Sequence record: NC_070991.1
DNA: 64,000 nucleotides
Strand: one strand, 5' to 3'
Source: Escherichia phage vB_EcoP_WFI101126
Shown: positions 45,242 through 60,813 of the stretch, piece by piece
How the letters are laid out: every line of letters starts with the position of its first letter
Numbering within the stretch: position 1 is the stretch's first letter
The notes under the pieces: model-generated
What the model saw: the letters and a program-made list of their open reading frames with translations, nothing else
Database searches by the model: none
What the model was told of the DNA's origin: nothing
Program-made: the position numbers and the translations under genes

Positions 45242-45853
45242 TTAGTAAGACACGTCACCACTTGAATGGGACATGTTGCTCTTGACGAAGTAGCAATACT
45301 TGCCAAGACCTTCATTAATTTCTTGAAGCATACTCTGATCGACAGGGTAGGATGCTAAATCGCCATCAAACTCATCCATCTTCTCAATAATACACATCAA
45401 GGTCATGCACATATCAGAGAGCATACCGTCCATATCCAGATCAGCATTACCCTCTGAGAACCAAGCATGGGAGAGGTAGTTAGCTGCTGTAGCATCCACC
45501 TTAACACAATGGTATCGCATACGCTCAGCAATACGATCTCCTACTTGTCGTGCGTAATCTTCCAGCTCATCAAACATACCATGAACACCCTGAAATCCTG
45601 CACCAGAGACATTCCAGTGGTAGTTCTTAGCTTTGATATGCAAGAGTTCCATGTTAGTTTGTAAGCAGCTTAGGATGTGTTCTAGGCTGTTTCCACTAAT
45701 CATACCCTGCATAGTTTCAAGGCGAGAGATTGAAAGCTCAGACCGGTCTAACATGTTATATTCTGCACGACCCATCTCAGGTAAATCAAAGACATTCTTA
45801 TGCATTTGGGTTTTCTCCATCAAGTTCAACTGAGTTAGCAACGTTACGTGCAA
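45242..45853 (-). CDS. Dps/ferritin-like protein (true start possibly 45820 or 45805)
   Basis: HWNVSGAGFQGVHGMFDELEDY matches the Dps ferroxidase-site pattern HWN..G..F..H..DE. Confidence 0.6.
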   Translation of the reverse strand: MHVTLLTQLNLMEKTQMHKNVFDLPEMGRAEYNMLDRSELSISRLETMQGMISGNSLEHILSCLQTNMELLHIKAKNYHWNVSGAGFQGVHGMFDELEDYARQVGDRIAERMRYHCVKVDATAANYLSHAWFSEGNADLDMDGMLSDMCMTLMCIIEKMDEFDGDLASYPVDQSMLQEINEGLGKYCYFVKSNMSHSSGDVSY

Positions 45854-46200: not shown

Positions 46201-46410
46201 TCAGTAATAAATTACTTTAGACATAAAAGAACCCGAGCTAGGGTCTTCGTACCAGCGATGAATGTCAGCACTTTTAACAGTTCCTATTAGAGCTTTCATG
46301 TTCTTTTTAGCGACACGAGCCTCTTTGCGAGTGTTAAACAGTTTGATATTATCTTTACCTAAGTGTTGTTTCTGTTCCCAAACAACACGAACAGCCCACA
46401 TCTTTTTCAT
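46201..46410 (-). CDS. small basic protein, paralog family member
   Basis: Tandem with two further copies; conserved TR..AR..KK and C-terminal KV.YY. Confidence 0.5.
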   Translation of the reverse strand: MKKMWAVRVVWEQKQHLGKDNIKLFNTRKEARVAKKNMKALIGTVKSADIHRWYEDPSSGSFMSKVIYY

Positions 46411-46619
46411 TAGTAATGTACCTTTCCGCTGATATAAATACGACCAGAAGAATACTCTTTGGCCTTATGGATACTGATACTGTTGACCACGTCACCAATA
46501 AGCATAGTCTTTTTAAAATCTCTAGCTTGTTGGCGAGTGGGCAGTGCAGTCATAGTCATACCACCTGATGCCCACTTAATCTTTGCTAACCAAAATTGTC
46601 TCATAGTGATTGGTCTCAT
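46410..46619 (-). CDS. small basic protein, paralog family member
   Basis: As above; 1-nt overlaps between consecutive genes. Confidence 0.5.
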   Translation of the reverse strand: MRPITMRQFWLAKIKWASGGMTMTALPTRQQARDFKKTMLIGDVVNSISIHKAKEYSSGRIYISGKVHY

Positions 46620-46816
46620 TAATAATAAACCTTGCTGTTGGCAAAAAGAGCACCTTCGTTATTCACAATAGCTTTTCCTATTGTAATCTTACCTGACAGA
46701 CCTATCCCCTTAAAAAGCTTCTTAATTCGACGGGCGTGCTCTCGAGTATTAACAAAATCTACAGATTTTATATCACCTGTCTTGTTATCATGTACACGAA
46801 CAATCCACTTTTTCAT
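46619..46816 (-). CDS. small basic protein, paralog family member
   Basis: As above. Confidence 0.5.
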   Translation of the reverse strand: MKKWIVRVHDNKTGDIKSVDFVNTREHARRIKKLFKGIGLSGKITIGKAIVNNEGALFANSKVYY

Positions 46817-47019: not shown

Positions 47020-47553
47020 TTACACACCTTTAGATGCAACTACACCTTCAGAGTTATTATAACGACCCTTCACTGCATAGGAGTGTTCCCCTGCATGAGA
47101 GTGCTCAAACATGACCATCTGACCAACACGCATACCAGCACGAACTCGTAAGCTATGATGCTTGGTTACGTTATGGAACTCAAATGTCAGCTTACTGCTG
47201 TTAAACCCTGCGTCTGCCCACCCGGCGTGGAGATGGTTCAAACCACAACGAGCCATAGACGAACGCAGAACAAACAGACTTGAGATGTTATCTGGAAGAT
47301 TAAACTCCTCCATAGAGTGAGCCAAGAAAAACTGACCCGGAGTGATAACCAAACCCTCTTCAGGAATCTTTACTTCTTTCCACTGAAGATTCTCTTTCGC
47401 ATCAATATCAACGATGCCATCAGCCTGTTCTTCAACAAGGATAGTATCACCAATACGGATATCCACACTAGCAGCGTTAACATACTTATGCTCCGCATCC
47501 AGATAGCCATTGTCAATTACATCGTGCAGTTCAACACTTCCTAGTAAACTCAT
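47020..47553 (-). CDS. dCTP deaminase / dUTPase-family enzyme
   Basis: ASVDIRIGD...HAGWADAGFNSSKLTFEFHN...RVGQMVMF matches dCTP deaminase/dUTPase trimer fold motifs. Confidence 0.7.
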   Translation of the reverse strand: MSLLGSVELHDVIDNGYLDAEHKYVNAASVDIRIGDTILVEEQADGIVDIDAKENLQWKEVKIPEEGLVITPGQFFLAHSMEEFNLPDNISSLFVLRSSMARCGLNHLHAGWADAGFNSSKLTFEFHNVTKHHSLRVRAGMRVGQMVMFEHSHAGEHSYAVKGRYNNSEGVVASKGV

Positions 47554-47562
47554 TCTTATTCC

Positions 47563-48873
47563 TTAGTTATTTGTTTCCATGTCAAAAGAGATTCCACGAC
47601 CCGCTTCATCGGCAAACCGATCATCGAGACTGTGACTGACAGTATCAGCAAGTTCTTCATGAGAGGGAATGTCAAGACTACCTACCACATCTTGAGCAGA
47701 AGCTTCATCAGTCCAGATAACACGAGAAGGGGCGTTGATATCACCAACAGCAAAACCCTGACCAGAGAACTGGTGACGGCTAACAGTCAAACCATTTGAT
47801 CGACTACGAGAAGGACTAGACATCCATCTCTCCATAGAATCACTTGTAATGCCAAGAGCTTCTTCAAAAGATGTTCTACGAGAAGAGCTTAGATTTCGTG
47901 CTTCATTTGCTCGGCGTCTTGTAGGGGCTACAAACACCCCTTCGATTGCGTTATGACGACTAGGCTCTTCTTCTCTACCAAGCAAATCACCACCCGTGTT
48001 AGTCGTTAAATTTGTCAACCCTTCAGACCAATACGCATAAATTTGACCAGACCCATGAAGACTTGACATAATCTGAATCTCTTCATAGGGGATTCCAAAG
48101 AATCGACTCATGTCACGGTTAACGCAATACTGAGCACTTGTTGTATCCTCAATAAGAGAAACCTGACCTAATCCATTAACCAGATGACTAACTGGCTGAG
48201 GTGTAGGAAGGTATCGAGTTTGGGCCATATATTGATATGCAACAGATGGAGCTGAGAATCTTAACACTTGTGAATTAGGCCACTTTTTGTGAACGTATCT
48301 GATTTCACGACTAGAAACAACCACAGGGCAAGGAGCGGTCATAGCTAAATACCCATGAGGGGTCATGAATAAGTTGTCAAGAGTCATCGCACCACGGCAC
48401 ATCATAGGAAAATTATCCAGAACCTCTTCAATAGAAGTAGGATAATTAAACATGAATTGGATACGAACCCCATTCCACTGAAACTCAATAATATCAGTGA
48501 ATGTTAATTGAGAACCCCCAGCATAGGACTCGTTTGTAGCCTCAGCAAGAAGAGATGAATACTCAATATCTTGTGACTCAAGCCATTCCTTCACGTTACT
48601 TTCAATTTCTCTTCCAAGAGCTTGCCAATGATCAGTTGATGTGAAAGTATTTTGGGTTCTTGGTGTTTGTCCTCTGACAATAAAGATATCAATGTCATGT
48701 GGAGCTGTGTTGTTAAGGACAGCATCACGAACAGCCCCACCAGTAATGATGGGACAGATACCGTCTGGAATCAAGTTGTTGTTAATCAACTGTTCAATGA
48801 AGTGACGACCAACAGTGATATCAGGTTGTTGAGCAACCTTATCTTCAATTCGGTTAATCGGGATAACAATCAT
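47563..48873 (-). CDS. pol-beta superfamily nucleotidyltransferase with CCA-adding-enzyme-like head motif
   Basis: ITGGAVRDAVLNNTAPHDIDIFIV (GGxVRD...DxD); remainder has no recognisable CCA body; start set to ATG 48873. Confidence 0.55.
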   Translation of the reverse strand: MIVIPINRIEDKVAQQPDITVGRHFIEQLINNNLIPDGICPIITGGAVRDAVLNNTAPHDIDIFIVRGQTPRTQNTFTSTDHWQALGREIESNVKEWLESQDIEYSSLLAEATNESYAGGSQLTFTDIIEFQWNGVRIQFMFNYPTSIEEVLDNFPMMCRGAMTLDNLFMTPHGYLAMTAPCPVVVSSREIRYVHKKWPNSQVLRFSAPSVAYQYMAQTRYLPTPQPVSHLVNGLGQVSLIEDTTSAQYCVNRDMSRFFGIPYEEIQIMSSLHGSGQIYAYWSEGLTNLTTNTGGDLLGREEEPSRHNAIEGVFVAPTRRRANEARNLSSSRRTSFEEALGITSDSMERWMSSPSRSRSNGLTVSRHQFSGQGFAVGDINAPSRVIWTDEASAQDVVGSLDIPSHEELADTVSHSLDDRFADEAGRGISFDMETNN

Positions 48874-48874
48874 T

Positions 48875-49432
48875 TTACATTTTCCAATATAATGAAGGTG
48901 GGTCGTAAGGGTCAAATCCTGTGAGTTCACACAAGAAAAGATAAACCTTAACAGTTAAGTTAACGTCCTGTTCACAATAAGTAAACATATCTTCAGTGAA
49001 AGCATCCCATGCTTCCTCTTGCTCGCCATAATCGCCCTTAAGTTCTCCTAAGAACTCACCCCACTGCTTCAAACCATGACCTCTTGGGCCACGTCTAGGG
49101 TCGCCTTTCGGATACTCAGGACTGTCACCAATACGGTCAGGTTTAAGATATCGACTAAGACATAAAGTGTCAAAGACGTTAAAACGATATTCAATTAGAT
49201 TAGGATACATTTTCTTCAGAGCACAAAGGTCGAAGTCAATAATATTATGACCCACGAGCACATCTGCTTCTGTCAGTTTACGAATCCCGTCTTCGATTTG
49301 GTGAGGCCGATAGCCCCACCTTTCACCAGTTTCAACATCGAAGATATAAATACACCATACTTTAGTTATGTCATCGTACAGTGCATTACTCTCGATATCG
49401 AATGCAAACACTTTCTTCTTTTTCTTTACCAC
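48875..49432 (-). CDS. DEDDy 3'-5' exonuclease, separate from polymerase
   Basis: [10 protein letters not shown] (Exo I), HNIIDFDL (Exo II), YCEQD (Exo III). Confidence 0.75.
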
Positions 49433-59619: not shown

Positions 59620-60813
59620 TTATTTTCCTAAAAATAATCCGCTCATAACACCATCCCACTCAGAGGACGGAATCACTGAATACTCCGAACTTTGGTCCAG
59701 AGTTCCACTACTAAATCGCTGAACAATGTTGTAGATGTTGAACAGGTCTTTAGCCTCGGCACGAATGCCGTAGATTAACCTGTTAGCTGTTCTCTCATTT
59801 TTAGACACGCGACGGGTAAAGTTAACCAAAAGATTATCACCTTTAAGTATCTCTGACCCATCTTTTACTAGATCGGGGTGCATCACTGGCAAGAACATTG
59901 AGTTGTTAACTCGCAATTCTGCTGTTTCGTCGTTCTCATAATGAATCCACTTAAAGTCTTCATCACGAAAGTGACCGCATCCATCTCTGTATGACTGTTG
60001 ACGCCAAGGCACTTGAAATGCTTCAGCGTATTTATCAGCCATGCCAACCGTAAATAGTGACGCTGGGAAAATACAAGCATCCCAATCGTTACCAACCAGA
60101 GTTGCTTTCGTTTCTCCCAAGAGGTTGGTGTAAGTGCTAACCATTCGTGAATAAACGTAAGCCTGAAGAATTGTCCAGCCTTCAACCAACCATTTATGAA
60201 GGAAGGTTTCAACTTGACTCTCTTCATCTTCACAATAGAAGGTTCGATCTAACATCAAATAGAACAGACAACGATCAGCAGGAACATTCTCAGTTGCTAC
60301 CCCCATAAAACCTTTCTCGTGCCAGCGTAAACAGGAGGGACGATCTTTGTCCACAAATGCTTCCATAGCTTCCAGTACAGCACGAGGTGTGGTTCGATGT
60401 TCAGGGTTTTTGTCGTTCCAACGTTCGATGTTATTTTTAAGCTCGCCTTCGTAATCAATAGCACCCCAACCTAAAGCTTCGGATACATGCTCTGCGTCAC
60501 GCCAACGTCTAAAACCTAACATCTTCATGTGAGTTCCGGAGTTCCAGATATGCTTGATTTTACACATATCCATCTCTCGGCTTAACAGGAACTCTTCCCC
60601 ATCAGCACTACGAACGTTAGCTTCTTCATGCCACACTCGAACGTGCATATTCCACCCATGAGTTGCCTCATACATGTTAGGGTCGAAGTATTCATCTTCG
60701 TCATCATCTTTATCAACGCCACCGTTATAGTTGCGAAGCTGAAGGAACCCATAACAAGGAGGGTTGACCGTTAAAACATTACCTTCAGTATCTTCTAATG
60801 TTACTGGAAACAT
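59620..60813 (-). CDS. hypothetical protein (397 aa), first large gene of the ligase operon
   Basis: ORF track. Confidence 0.45.
   Translation of the reverse strand: MFPVTLEDTEGNVLTVNPPCYGFLQLRNYNGGVDKDDDEDEYFDPNMYEATHGWNMHVRVWHEEANVRSADGEEFLLSREMDMCKIKHIWNSGTHMKMLGFRRWRDAEHVSEALGWGAIDYEGELKNNIERWNDKNPEHRTTPRAVLEAMEAFVDKDRPSCLRWHEKGFMGVATENVPADRCLFYLMLDRTFYCEDEESQVETFLHKWLVEGWTILQAYVYSRMVSTYTNLLGETKATLVGNDWDACIFPASLFTVGMADKYAEAFQVPWRQQSYRDGCGHFRDEDFKWIHYENDETAELRVNNSMFLPVMHPDLVKDGSEILKGDNLLVNFTRRVSKNERTANRLIYGIRAEAKDLFNIYNIVQRFSSGTLDQSSEYSVIPSSEWDGVMSGLFLGK

Follow-up and report, generated by a model that had tools for sequence, protein, structure and literature searches.

A divergent class II-like nucleotidyltransferase in the replication module of a kuravirus, and its likeness to Gad2

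Introduction

Escherichia phage vB_EcoP_WFI101126 is a Kuravirus (Gordonclarkvirinae), that is, a phiEco32-like coliphage of the C3 morphotype, and the stretch of its DNA analyzed here (64,000 nucleotides of sequence record NC_070991.1, hereafter the window) carries in its replication module a gene for a 436-residue nucleotidyltransferase, which is referred to below as the window protein. Residues 1-270 of this protein are very likely an active class II-like nucleotidyltransferase, comprising the head domain of CCA-adding enzymes and poly(A) polymerases and little else that is folded. We are confident that the window protein is not itself a CCA-adding enzyme, and it probably is part of a phage superfamily of head-only enzymes that also includes Gad2 (Gabija anti-defence 2) and the phrog_1614 proteins. 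As for function, we tentatively suggest an active Gad2-like nucleotidyltransferase of the head-only class II branch, whose substrate is not a tRNA CCA end and which has a role in protecting phage DNA.

The annotation of this gene as a nucleotidyltransferase with a CCA-type head is not new. It has been public since 2008-2014, and many GenBank records already label the gene "nucleotidyltransferase". The present analysis followed up a first-pass annotation of the DNA, made from the sequence alone, and addresses what kind of nucleotidyltransferase is encoded, to which proteins it is related, and what it may do in its genomic setting.

The Catalytic Domain

The first-pass annotation had noticed the GGxVRD...DxD signature of nucleotidyltransferases with the DNA polymerase beta (pol-beta) fold, and had assigned it to a divergent head domain like that of CCA-adding enzymes and poly(A) polymerases. 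The signature is real, and sequence, profile, and predicted structure agree on the head. It lies in the peptide ITGGAVRDAVLNNTAPHDIDIF (residues 43-64), and the protein matches PHROG 12715 "nucleotidyltransferase" (phrog_12715, Gordonclarkvirinae-type) along its whole length (E=3e-240; residues 1-436, profile positions 1-457 of 457). In a column census of 26 family members sharing 23-37% identity with the window protein, motif A residues G45, G46, R49, D50, D60, and D62 are invariant in all 26, and these include the two catalytic aspartates, D60 and D62, that the first-pass annotation had proposed to examine on an alignment. Further invariant positions are F64, I128, Q139, P156, Y193, and K197, and position 190 is always D or E.

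The hidden Markov model (HMM) and structure-based searches that had likewise been proposed returned matches to the class II head. An AlphaFold model of residues 1-270, built with the 26-member alignment, has a predicted local distance difference test score (pLDDT) of 87.5 and a predicted template modeling score of 0.83. When this model was compared with the PDB using Foldseek, every one of the 44 best matches was to a class II tRNA nucleotidyltransferase or to poly(A) polymerase I; the predicted structure has the head-domain fold of these enzymes. Only about 150-160 of the 270 residues superpose, so the match covers the head and the start of the neck. At the level of sequence, the Pfam PolyA_pol head (PF01743) is matched at E=6e-4 with 20.6 bits, below the gathering score of 23, over profile positions 3-77 of 126. 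Weak matches to PF01743 were obtained for 15 of the 26 members (best E 2.5e-4), and the members scored individually all fall below the cut-off. Sequence alignment to a solved CCA-adding enzyme (6ibp) is confined to motif A, and global hhalign comparison with canonical enzymes is unreliable past it (probability 12.8%).

The catalytic domain is kept over residues 1-264 in the sister genera and over about residues 1-215 in the most distant members. Its ratio of nonsynonymous to synonymous substitution rates (dN/dS), taken from three pairwise comparisons, is 0.07-0.14. Judged from the alignments and the predicted model, the nucleoside triphosphate (NTP)- and metal-binding site is intact on a class II head, and the elements for ribose, C/A, and tRNA specificity have been lost.

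Relationship to Gad2 and phrog_1614 Enzymes

Gad2 of phage SPbetaL7 was described as Gabija anti-defence 2; its deletion leaves SPbetaL7 fully sensitive to Gabija, and a Brevibacillus homologue abolishes Gabija defence (bioRxiv 10.1101/2023.05.01.538930). Gad2 has an AlphaFold-predicted nucleotidyltransferase domain, and the SPbetaL7 copy is toxic (bioRxiv 10.1101/2023.05.01.538930). Precomputed matches to Pfam PF26128 "Gad2" exist for most kuravirus orthologues, rated "weak" (E 1e-5 to 1e-3) for the two with a listed E-value band, P0011 and P0079, and there are none on SU7-type orthologues. Comparison of the kuravirus family with a 13-sequence Gad2 alignment (sequences from supplementary table 10 of bioRxiv 10.1101/2023.05.01.538930) by hhalign gave a probability of 94.0%, an E of 1.5e-7, and a score of 54.9 over 139 columns (query 20-198), compared with 23.9 for the reversed alignment and 9.9-17.3 for 20 column shuffles. 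The same comparison with a canonical class II alignment reached a score of 44.0, over 93 columns only.

The aligned motifs comprise GG...DxD[IV][FY]F; a strand "IQ[LFM][MI]", in which the glutamine (Q139, invariant here) is conserved in Gad2; "FPMMC" opposite Gad2 "FDFTVCMG", itself aligned to the canonical "RRDFTINA"; and "RxxxYxxK" opposite "LRVQKYxxKGY". The Gad2 neck motif YP...R..KY is retained only in part in the kuravirus family, with P183 in 12/26 members, R189 in 21/26, and Y193 and K197 in 26/26 each. This Gad2-bridged alignment also led us to drop two earlier assignments, namely Q139 as the canonical third carboxylate (the E of "EVTTFR"), for which E130, which is not conserved, is the likelier positional equivalent, and R[D/E]xxY as an equivalent of EDxxR.

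A second link is provided by phrog_1614, the family of phiKMV/LKD16 gp16. The window protein matches it at E=6.3e-8 (residues 35-155 against profile positions 31-138 of 268), and so did all five Gad2-family proteins tested, one of them experimentally verified (8e-4 to 2e-8). LKD16 gp16 itself matches the profile at 9.5e-40, and hhalign of the window family with LKD16 gp16 covers motif A only. In addition, a Foldseek search of BFVD returned many head-only nucleotidyltransferases of 170-270 residues, mostly from podophages, several of them at E 1e-5 to 1e-8.

The match to the Gad2 profile and the common matches to phrog_1614 suggest a phage-specific superfamily of head-only class II-like nucleotidyltransferases. 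It would have at least three branches (Gad2 proper, phrog_1614, and phrog_12715), and the window protein, which probably is a member of this superfamily, would lie in the third. Its likeness to Gad2 (PF26128; SPbetaL7 ORF159 and the Brevibacillus laterosporus homologue; Yirmiya et al. 2023/2024) consists in a phage-restricted, class II-like enzyme reduced to head plus neck, with the motifs GG...DxD[IV][FY]F, the "IQ[LFM][MI]" strand and the "RxxxY..K" helix, and with variable C-terminal extensions. There are also clear differences. Identity is about 16-18%; R49 and D50 of GGxVRD are mostly lost in Gad2 and kept in the window protein; the C-terminal part of the 400-residue Gad2 proteins is a different sequence, whereas the tail of the window protein is predicted to be disordered; and the gad2 gene is an accessory anti-defence locus of temperate Bacillus phages, whereas the window gene is a syntenic core gene in the replication operon of a lytic podophage.

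The phrog_1614 enzymes of Autographiviridae, such as Pseudomonas phage LKD16 gp16 (199 residues) and Emajogi gp22, resemble the window protein in motif A (GGAxRD...DxD), in having no body or tail domains, and in being encoded beside a primase/helicase in the replication module, with LKD16 gp16 placed between the helicase and ligase genes. They are, however, much shorter and have no disordered tail. According to a 2026 preprint, the nucleotidyltransferase Emajogi gp22 is encoded beside the primase/helicase gene, has homologues annotated "Gad2 family", and is toxic on overexpression.

Comparison With CCA-adding Enzymes and Poly(A) Polymerases

Class II enzymes (PF01743 plus PF12627; E. coli Cca and PcnB; PDB 1miv, 3aql, and 4wby) share with the window protein a near-identical motif A (GGAVRD-x9-DxD) and the two-metal pol-beta catalytic architecture. 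The differences lie in everything that makes a CCA-adding enzyme specific. In a reference set of E. coli Cca, PcnB, and four phage class II enzymes, GGxVRD...DxD, RRD[FL][TS][IVM]N[AS], and [ED]DxxRxxRxxRF are present in all six. Motif B RRD is the element for recognition of the ribose 2'-OH, and motif D EDxxR is the protein template for C/A selection. The RRD triad is absent from the kuravirus family, in which the segment reads x-[F/M]-P-x-x-[C/S/A] and is represented here by residues 155-161, with P156 invariant in the column census; the placing of this segment opposite motif B is a likely one, made through the hhalign alignment with Gad2. No EDxxR occurs in residues 1-270, the matching helix being [R/T][D/E]xxYxxKK. 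Beyond about residue 160-220 there is no Pfam, PDB, or fold match to the body and tail RNA-binding domains (e.g., PF12627), which bears out the first-pass remark that the remainder of the protein resembles no recognizable CCA body.

When 1.84 billion cluster representatives were searched exhaustively with an HMM profile of the N-terminal 289 residues, just 31 proteins were recovered at E<=1e-3, none of them a canonical CCA-adding enzyme or poly(A) polymerase. Word-indexed searches returned only close kuravirus relatives (at least 70% identity) and SU7-type relatives, and with E. coli Cca as the query this kind of search yielded nothing beyond enterobacterial Cca of at least 87% identity; single-protein sequence searches against PDB, NCBIfam, and PADLOC gave nothing useful. 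True phage CCA-adding enzymes are readily identified, with 423 phage records at 29-56% identity to E. coli Cca, mainly from large phages among those listed, and no kuravirus occurs within the genera and rows listed. A canonical CCA enzyme and a Gad2 homologue occur together in phage 4MG, which indicates that one family does not stand in for the other. Streptococcus pneumoniae NP_344798.1 (PDB 2la3), an orphan "CCA-adding enzyme head domain" protein of 191 residues without a tail, is a poorer match to the window protein than are the full-length enzymes.

The tRNA content of the phage provides a further argument. There are no tRNA genes in the 64-kb window, and kuraviruses carry one tRNA-Arg(TCT) (PMC9965538), located in the approximately 13.7 kb of genome outside the window. 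In the near-identical phage Ptacy1532, this gene (L015 2527-2601) encodes the 3' CCA after the discriminator G, so the phage would have no special need for CCA addition. The first-pass annotation had inferred tRNA 3'-end (CCA) repair, or else a nucleotidylation activity of another kind. The former is not supported, given the absence of RRD, EDxxR, and the body and tail domains, the Pfam score below the gathering threshold, and the CCA encoded in the Ptacy1532 tRNA; the latter remains the right level of claim. The gene should not be propagated as "tRNA nucleotidyltransferase / CCA-adding enzyme".

The C-terminal Tail

Residues 271-436 form a tail that is predicted to be disordered. Full-length AlphaFold (AF2) with a shallow alignment gave a pLDDT of 45 and is useful only for this disorder. 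The tail had been described as Ser/Arg-rich, and its composition (S 14.5%, G 9%, R 9%, E 8.4%) agrees with that as far as Ser and Arg are concerned; Gly and Glu are also abundant, and the net charge is -10. Between close relatives the tail is rich in insertions and deletions, and it has no homology to the SU7-type tail. Its dN/dS of 0.28-0.41, from the same three comparisons as that of the catalytic domain, indicates a faster-evolving region that is yet coding and under purifying selection.

A short aromatic motif, [WYF][STN]x[GSN], is found in about 18 of 25 members at a distance of 270-290 residues from the N-terminus and often stands at the extreme C-terminus of short members. Other Trp-centered motifs are scattered along the long tails, and no clamp-binding motif or tip motif of single-stranded DNA-binding protein was recognized in the tail by eye. 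The tail may be a flexible recruitment arm, with the aromatic motif as a docking motif. The shortest members (274-300 residues) are nearly tail-less.

The Gene, Its Family, and Its Genomic Setting

The coding sequence begins with ATG, encodes 436 residues plus a stop, and gives the N-terminus MIVIPINR. All orthologues start with MIVIPIN; a longer form starting at GTG (48930) is not used by them and would run into the upstream exonuclease gene. The gene is orthologous to phiEco32 gp73 and SU10 CDS74, and among the matches listed the protein is 76-98% identical to its kuravirus orthologues. The surrounding 2.5 kb shares 99.1% identity with Escherichia phage Ptacy1532, and 91-94% with SU10, CHD5UKE1, Bas90/91, SGF2, and others among the matches listed. 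Features of the gene and of its immediate neighbors are given in Table 1.

Table 1. Positions in the window of the nucleotidyltransferase gene, its parts, and adjacent genes
Feature	Position	Strand	Description and basis
Primase/helicase	49426..51216	(-)	First gene of the block primase/helicase, exonuclease, nucleotidyltransferase, dCTP deaminase; Pfam and PHROG scans
3'-5' exonuclease subunit	48875..49432	(-)	Upstream neighbor; separate subunit of a split family-A DNA polymerase
Nucleotidyltransferase	47563..48873	(-)	Profile matches, orthology
Folded catalytic domain, residues 1-270	48064..48873	(-)	Predicted class II-type pol-beta head plus short helical "neck"
Motif A, residues 45-62	48688..48741	(-)	GGAVRD-x9-DID; glycine loop/helix positioning the NTP, and two metal-binding aspartates
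Beta-strand, residues 136-146	48436..48468	(-)	VRIQFMFNYPT; holds invariant Q139, and M141; aligns with the Gad2 "IQLI/LQMI" strand
Residues 155-161	48391..48411	(-)	FPMMCRG; probable positional counterpart of canonical motif B "RRDFTINA" and Gad2 "FDFTVCMG"
Helix, residues 188-199	48277..48312	(-)	REIRYVHKKWPN; invariant acid at 190, Y193, K197; aligns with Gad2 "LRVQKYxxKGY"; no EDxxR
Tail, residues 271-436	47563..48063	(-)	Predicted disordered; pLDDT about 20-35, composition, dN/dS
WSEGL, residues 282-286	48016..48030	(-)	Short aromatic motif [WYF][STN]x[GSN]; regular expression
dCTP deaminase	47020..47553	(-)	Downstream neighbor

The order of genes on the minus strand is primase/helicase, exonuclease subunit, nucleotidyltransferase, dCTP deaminase, three small paralogous open reading frames (ORFs), and a Dps/ferritin-like protein. 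The stop codon (TAA) of the exonuclease subunit lies 1 nt ahead of the nucleotidyltransferase ATG, a gap that suggests that both genes are probably translationally coupled.

This setting is conserved in very distant relatives. Family members range from 274 to 490 residues in length; only about the first 215 residues can be aligned in the most distant ones, and from genus to genus the C-terminal regions have nothing in common. For five distant members the source contigs were inspected. The exonuclease-subunit gene is directly upstream in all five, and dCTP deaminase is directly downstream in four, the fifth contig ending there; where the contigs extend further, primase/helicase and gamma-glutamyl cyclotransferase (GGACT) lie on the upstream side, and thioredoxin and ThyX on the downstream side. 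Homologues at 25-29% identity keep the gene order, as do SU7, Bas91, and phiEco32. The conserved synteny points to a lineage-specific core gene of the replication module and not to a mobile accessory gene.

One isolate differs from this picture. In phage vB-EcoP-XT32, two hypothetical proteins are annotated in place of the nucleotidyltransferase, and the match by tblastn (H47) falls in two pieces. In addition, a C-terminal fragment of 283 residues (P0044) is present in ENA. These cases could be frameshifts, assembly errors, or real disruptions; a real one would make the gene dispensable in at least one isolate.

Possible Functions

How might such an enzyme serve the phage? In the mechanism that we tentatively put forward, the enzyme would bind an NTP, or possibly a deoxynucleoside triphosphate (dNTP), at the GG/DxD site and would transfer a nucleotidyl group to a hydroxyl of an acceptor other than a tRNA CCA end. 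Through its conserved aromatic motif, the tail may recruit the enzyme to a partner, and replicating phage DNA or its ends would be shielded from host DNA-targeting defence by nucleotidylation either of DNA ends or of a host protein. A protective role is suggested by the analogy with Gad2 together with the seat of the gene in the replication operon. A role in counter-defence or at DNA ends is thus weakly favored, and counter-defence taken on its own is possible, if somewhat doubtful. With regard to DNA ends, Gabija is reported to act at phage DNA ends lacking RecBCD activity (PMC12904381).

The resistance of these phages to restriction-modification (RM) systems is relevant in this respect. Gordonclarkvirinae were described as "remarkably resistant" to RM systems, neither a modification nor an inhibitor being known, and the authors of the BASEL collection flagged the locus of dCTP deaminase and nucleotidyltransferase in connection with this resistance and proposed DNA modification (PMC11990801). 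In the 64-kb window, there are no PstI, SacI, KpnI, SmaI, BamHI, or PmlI sites, one NcoI site, four CCWGG sites, and 130 GATC sites as against about 240-295 expected. There are, on the other hand, 32 EcoRV, five EcoRI, 10 EcoKI, and 103 EcoP1 (AGACC) sites. Site avoidance is only partial, so that the loss of sites alone cannot explain the broad RM resistance of Gordonclarkvirinae.

Several observations weigh against a protective, Gad2-like role. A strictly conserved third carboxylate was not found, E130 being acidic in 17 of the 26 members. The aspartate of Gad2 "FDFT" and canonical "RRD" is replaced by the invariant P156. The window protein matches only phrog_12715 and phrog_1614 and none of the Gad2 PHROGs (18122, 27100, 16176, and 4400), and a Gad2 HMM scores the window sequence at 11 bits, whereas a canonical class II HMM, driven by motif A, gives it 22 bits. 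The link to Gad2 is a remote one, and the Pfam Gad2 match is rated "weak". As of February 2026, how Gad2 works was still given as unknown (PMC12904381), and the analogy therefore yields no chemistry. A net acidic tail is at odds with simple binding of nucleic acid, and no activity or phenotype is on record for any family member. Finally, a syntenic, strongly constrained core gene of a replication operon is atypical for anti-defence, and a housekeeping role in replication or nucleotide metabolism fits equally well.

The chief rival is accordingly an enzyme of replication or DNA modification that works with the replisome and dCTP deaminase, either adding (deoxy)nucleotides without a template to the 3' ends of DNA or primers, or modifying DNA covalently so as to confer resistance to restriction. 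As a complete account we regard it as rather unlikely, though it fits the core-gene behavior of the family at least as well as does counter-defence, and the two are not separable computationally. The place of the gene between the exonuclease subunit of PolA and dCTP deaminase is fixed lineage-wide, with the 1-nt gap described above; purifying selection is strong; the loss of the ribose-discriminating RRD would permit the use of dNTPs; and both the BASEL proposal and the EcoRV, EcoKI, and EcoP1 sites present, which make avoidance insufficient for RM resistance, are in its favor. However, no known pathway of DNA base modification uses a class II-type nucleotidyltransferase, and the phage encodes ThyX, which makes DNA containing deoxyuridine unlikely. 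The pairing of dCTP deaminase with ThyX is fully explained by an ordinary supply of dTTP in a genome of 41% GC, and modified bases in these phages are not reported in the literature found, in which a search for in vitro restriction digests of kuravirus DNA was uninformative.

Both remaining explanations are less likely than counter-defence and replication or modification. Tailing or repair of RNA 3' ends, by a pared-down enzyme that adds CCA, A, or poly(A) and so mends nuclease-damaged tRNA ends or tails host RNA for decay, would be in line with the nearest solved structures, all of which act on RNA 3' ends, and with the near-identity of motif A; E. coli PAP I (poly(A) polymerase I) also has a disordered C-terminal region. 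We nonetheless consider it very unlikely, given the missing motifs and domains, the sub-threshold Pfam score, the distinct CCA enzymes of other phages, the joint presence of both families in 4MG, and the CCA-encoding tRNA; in addition, the host already supplies Cca, the context is one of DNA replication, and no RNA ligase or Pnk is encoded nearby. A catalytically dead scaffold, in which the head serves only for structure or nucleotide binding (for example, as a replisome accessory or NTP sensor) and the work falls to the tail, is most improbable: the variable third carboxylate, the proline in place of the RRD/FDFT aspartate, and the long disordered tail with conserved short motifs are compatible with it, but invariance of the metal-binding aspartates, the GG loop, and R49/D50 at 23-37% identity is hard to explain without catalysis, and the shortest members almost lack the tail.

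Returning to the protective role, one could go further and regard the kuravirus enzyme as the catalytic core of an undescribed nucleotidylation-based immune evasion common with Gad2, for example, by capping or extension of phage DNA termini or by nucleotidylation of a host nuclease or helicase. This is quite unlikely. If true, it would explain why Gordonclarkvirinae withstand RM and other DNA-targeting defences so unusually broadly, and the mode of action of Gad2 would be revealed as well.

Association with the virion was also considered, as one nucleotidyltransferase peptide was found in a polyethylene glycol preparation of SU10. The accessible text of a later SU10 virion study, which gives gp20-24 as ejection proteins, does not mention the nucleotidyltransferase and so does not confirm the finding, and virion association was set aside.

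Other Features of the Region

The family-A DNA polymerase of the phage is split, its 185-residue 3'-5' exonuclease subunit being encoded about 8 kb from the polymerase subunit. Between the two genes lie those for the nucleotidyltransferase, dCTP deaminase, the Dps-like protein, thioredoxin, ThyX, ligase, and PhoH. The same split is present in Bas91 (locus L002, 11442-11999 and 20085-21929).

Between the dCTP deaminase and Dps-like genes, three small ORFs abut in tandem on the minus strand (46201-46410, 46410-46619, and 46619-46816; 69, 69, and 65 residues). They are paralogues of about 30% identity with W4, TR..AR..KK, IG, and a C-terminal Y in common. The Dps/ferritin-like "DNA binding protein" (45242-45853, minus strand; Pfam Ferritin E=3e-7, phrog_3636) is encoded within the replication module. 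Its TTG start gives an N-terminal extension of about 50 residues relative to the PHROG profile, and the true start is probably further downstream.

Upstream, at about 51436-60813 on the minus strand, is a conserved cluster, an amidoligase system of the Iyer/Aravind type, encoding a COOH-NH2 ligase, Amidoligase_2, a class II glutamine amidotransferase (GATase), an ATP-grasp (RimK-like) protein, and GGACT (51436-51855). It is present in Bas91 (L002 1-9438) and in locus L006 (589-7242), and is retained even in relatives in which the nucleotidyltransferase is only 25% identical. A paper citing Iyer et al. 2009 gives modification of the cell wall as the proposed role of this cluster. No evidence was found that the nucleotidyltransferase is part of the amidoligase, GATase, ATP-grasp, and GGACT cluster. 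Within it, the GlmS-like class II GATase gene (54002-56032, minus strand) has an ATT start (56032-56030) preceded by AGGTGGA and followed by Cys-Gly, the Cys being the N-terminal nucleophile. ATT is the annotated start in Bas91 too, which indicates that a mechanical ORF list under-calls this amidotransferase (563 residues from TTG).

Conclusions

The gene described here belongs to a known kind and is already annotated in public records, and the finding is mostly ordinary, with nothing in it to surprise a specialist; what sets this divergent branch apart is its distinctive disordered tail and its genomic seat. Its interest is that a core replication-module gene of a common, therapeutically used group of coliphages is tied to Gad2-like anti-defence nucleotidyltransferases. 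K-12-infecting isolates (BASEL Bas86-93) make the family experimentally tractable, and it may bear both on how Gad2 works and on why kuraviruses resist restriction.

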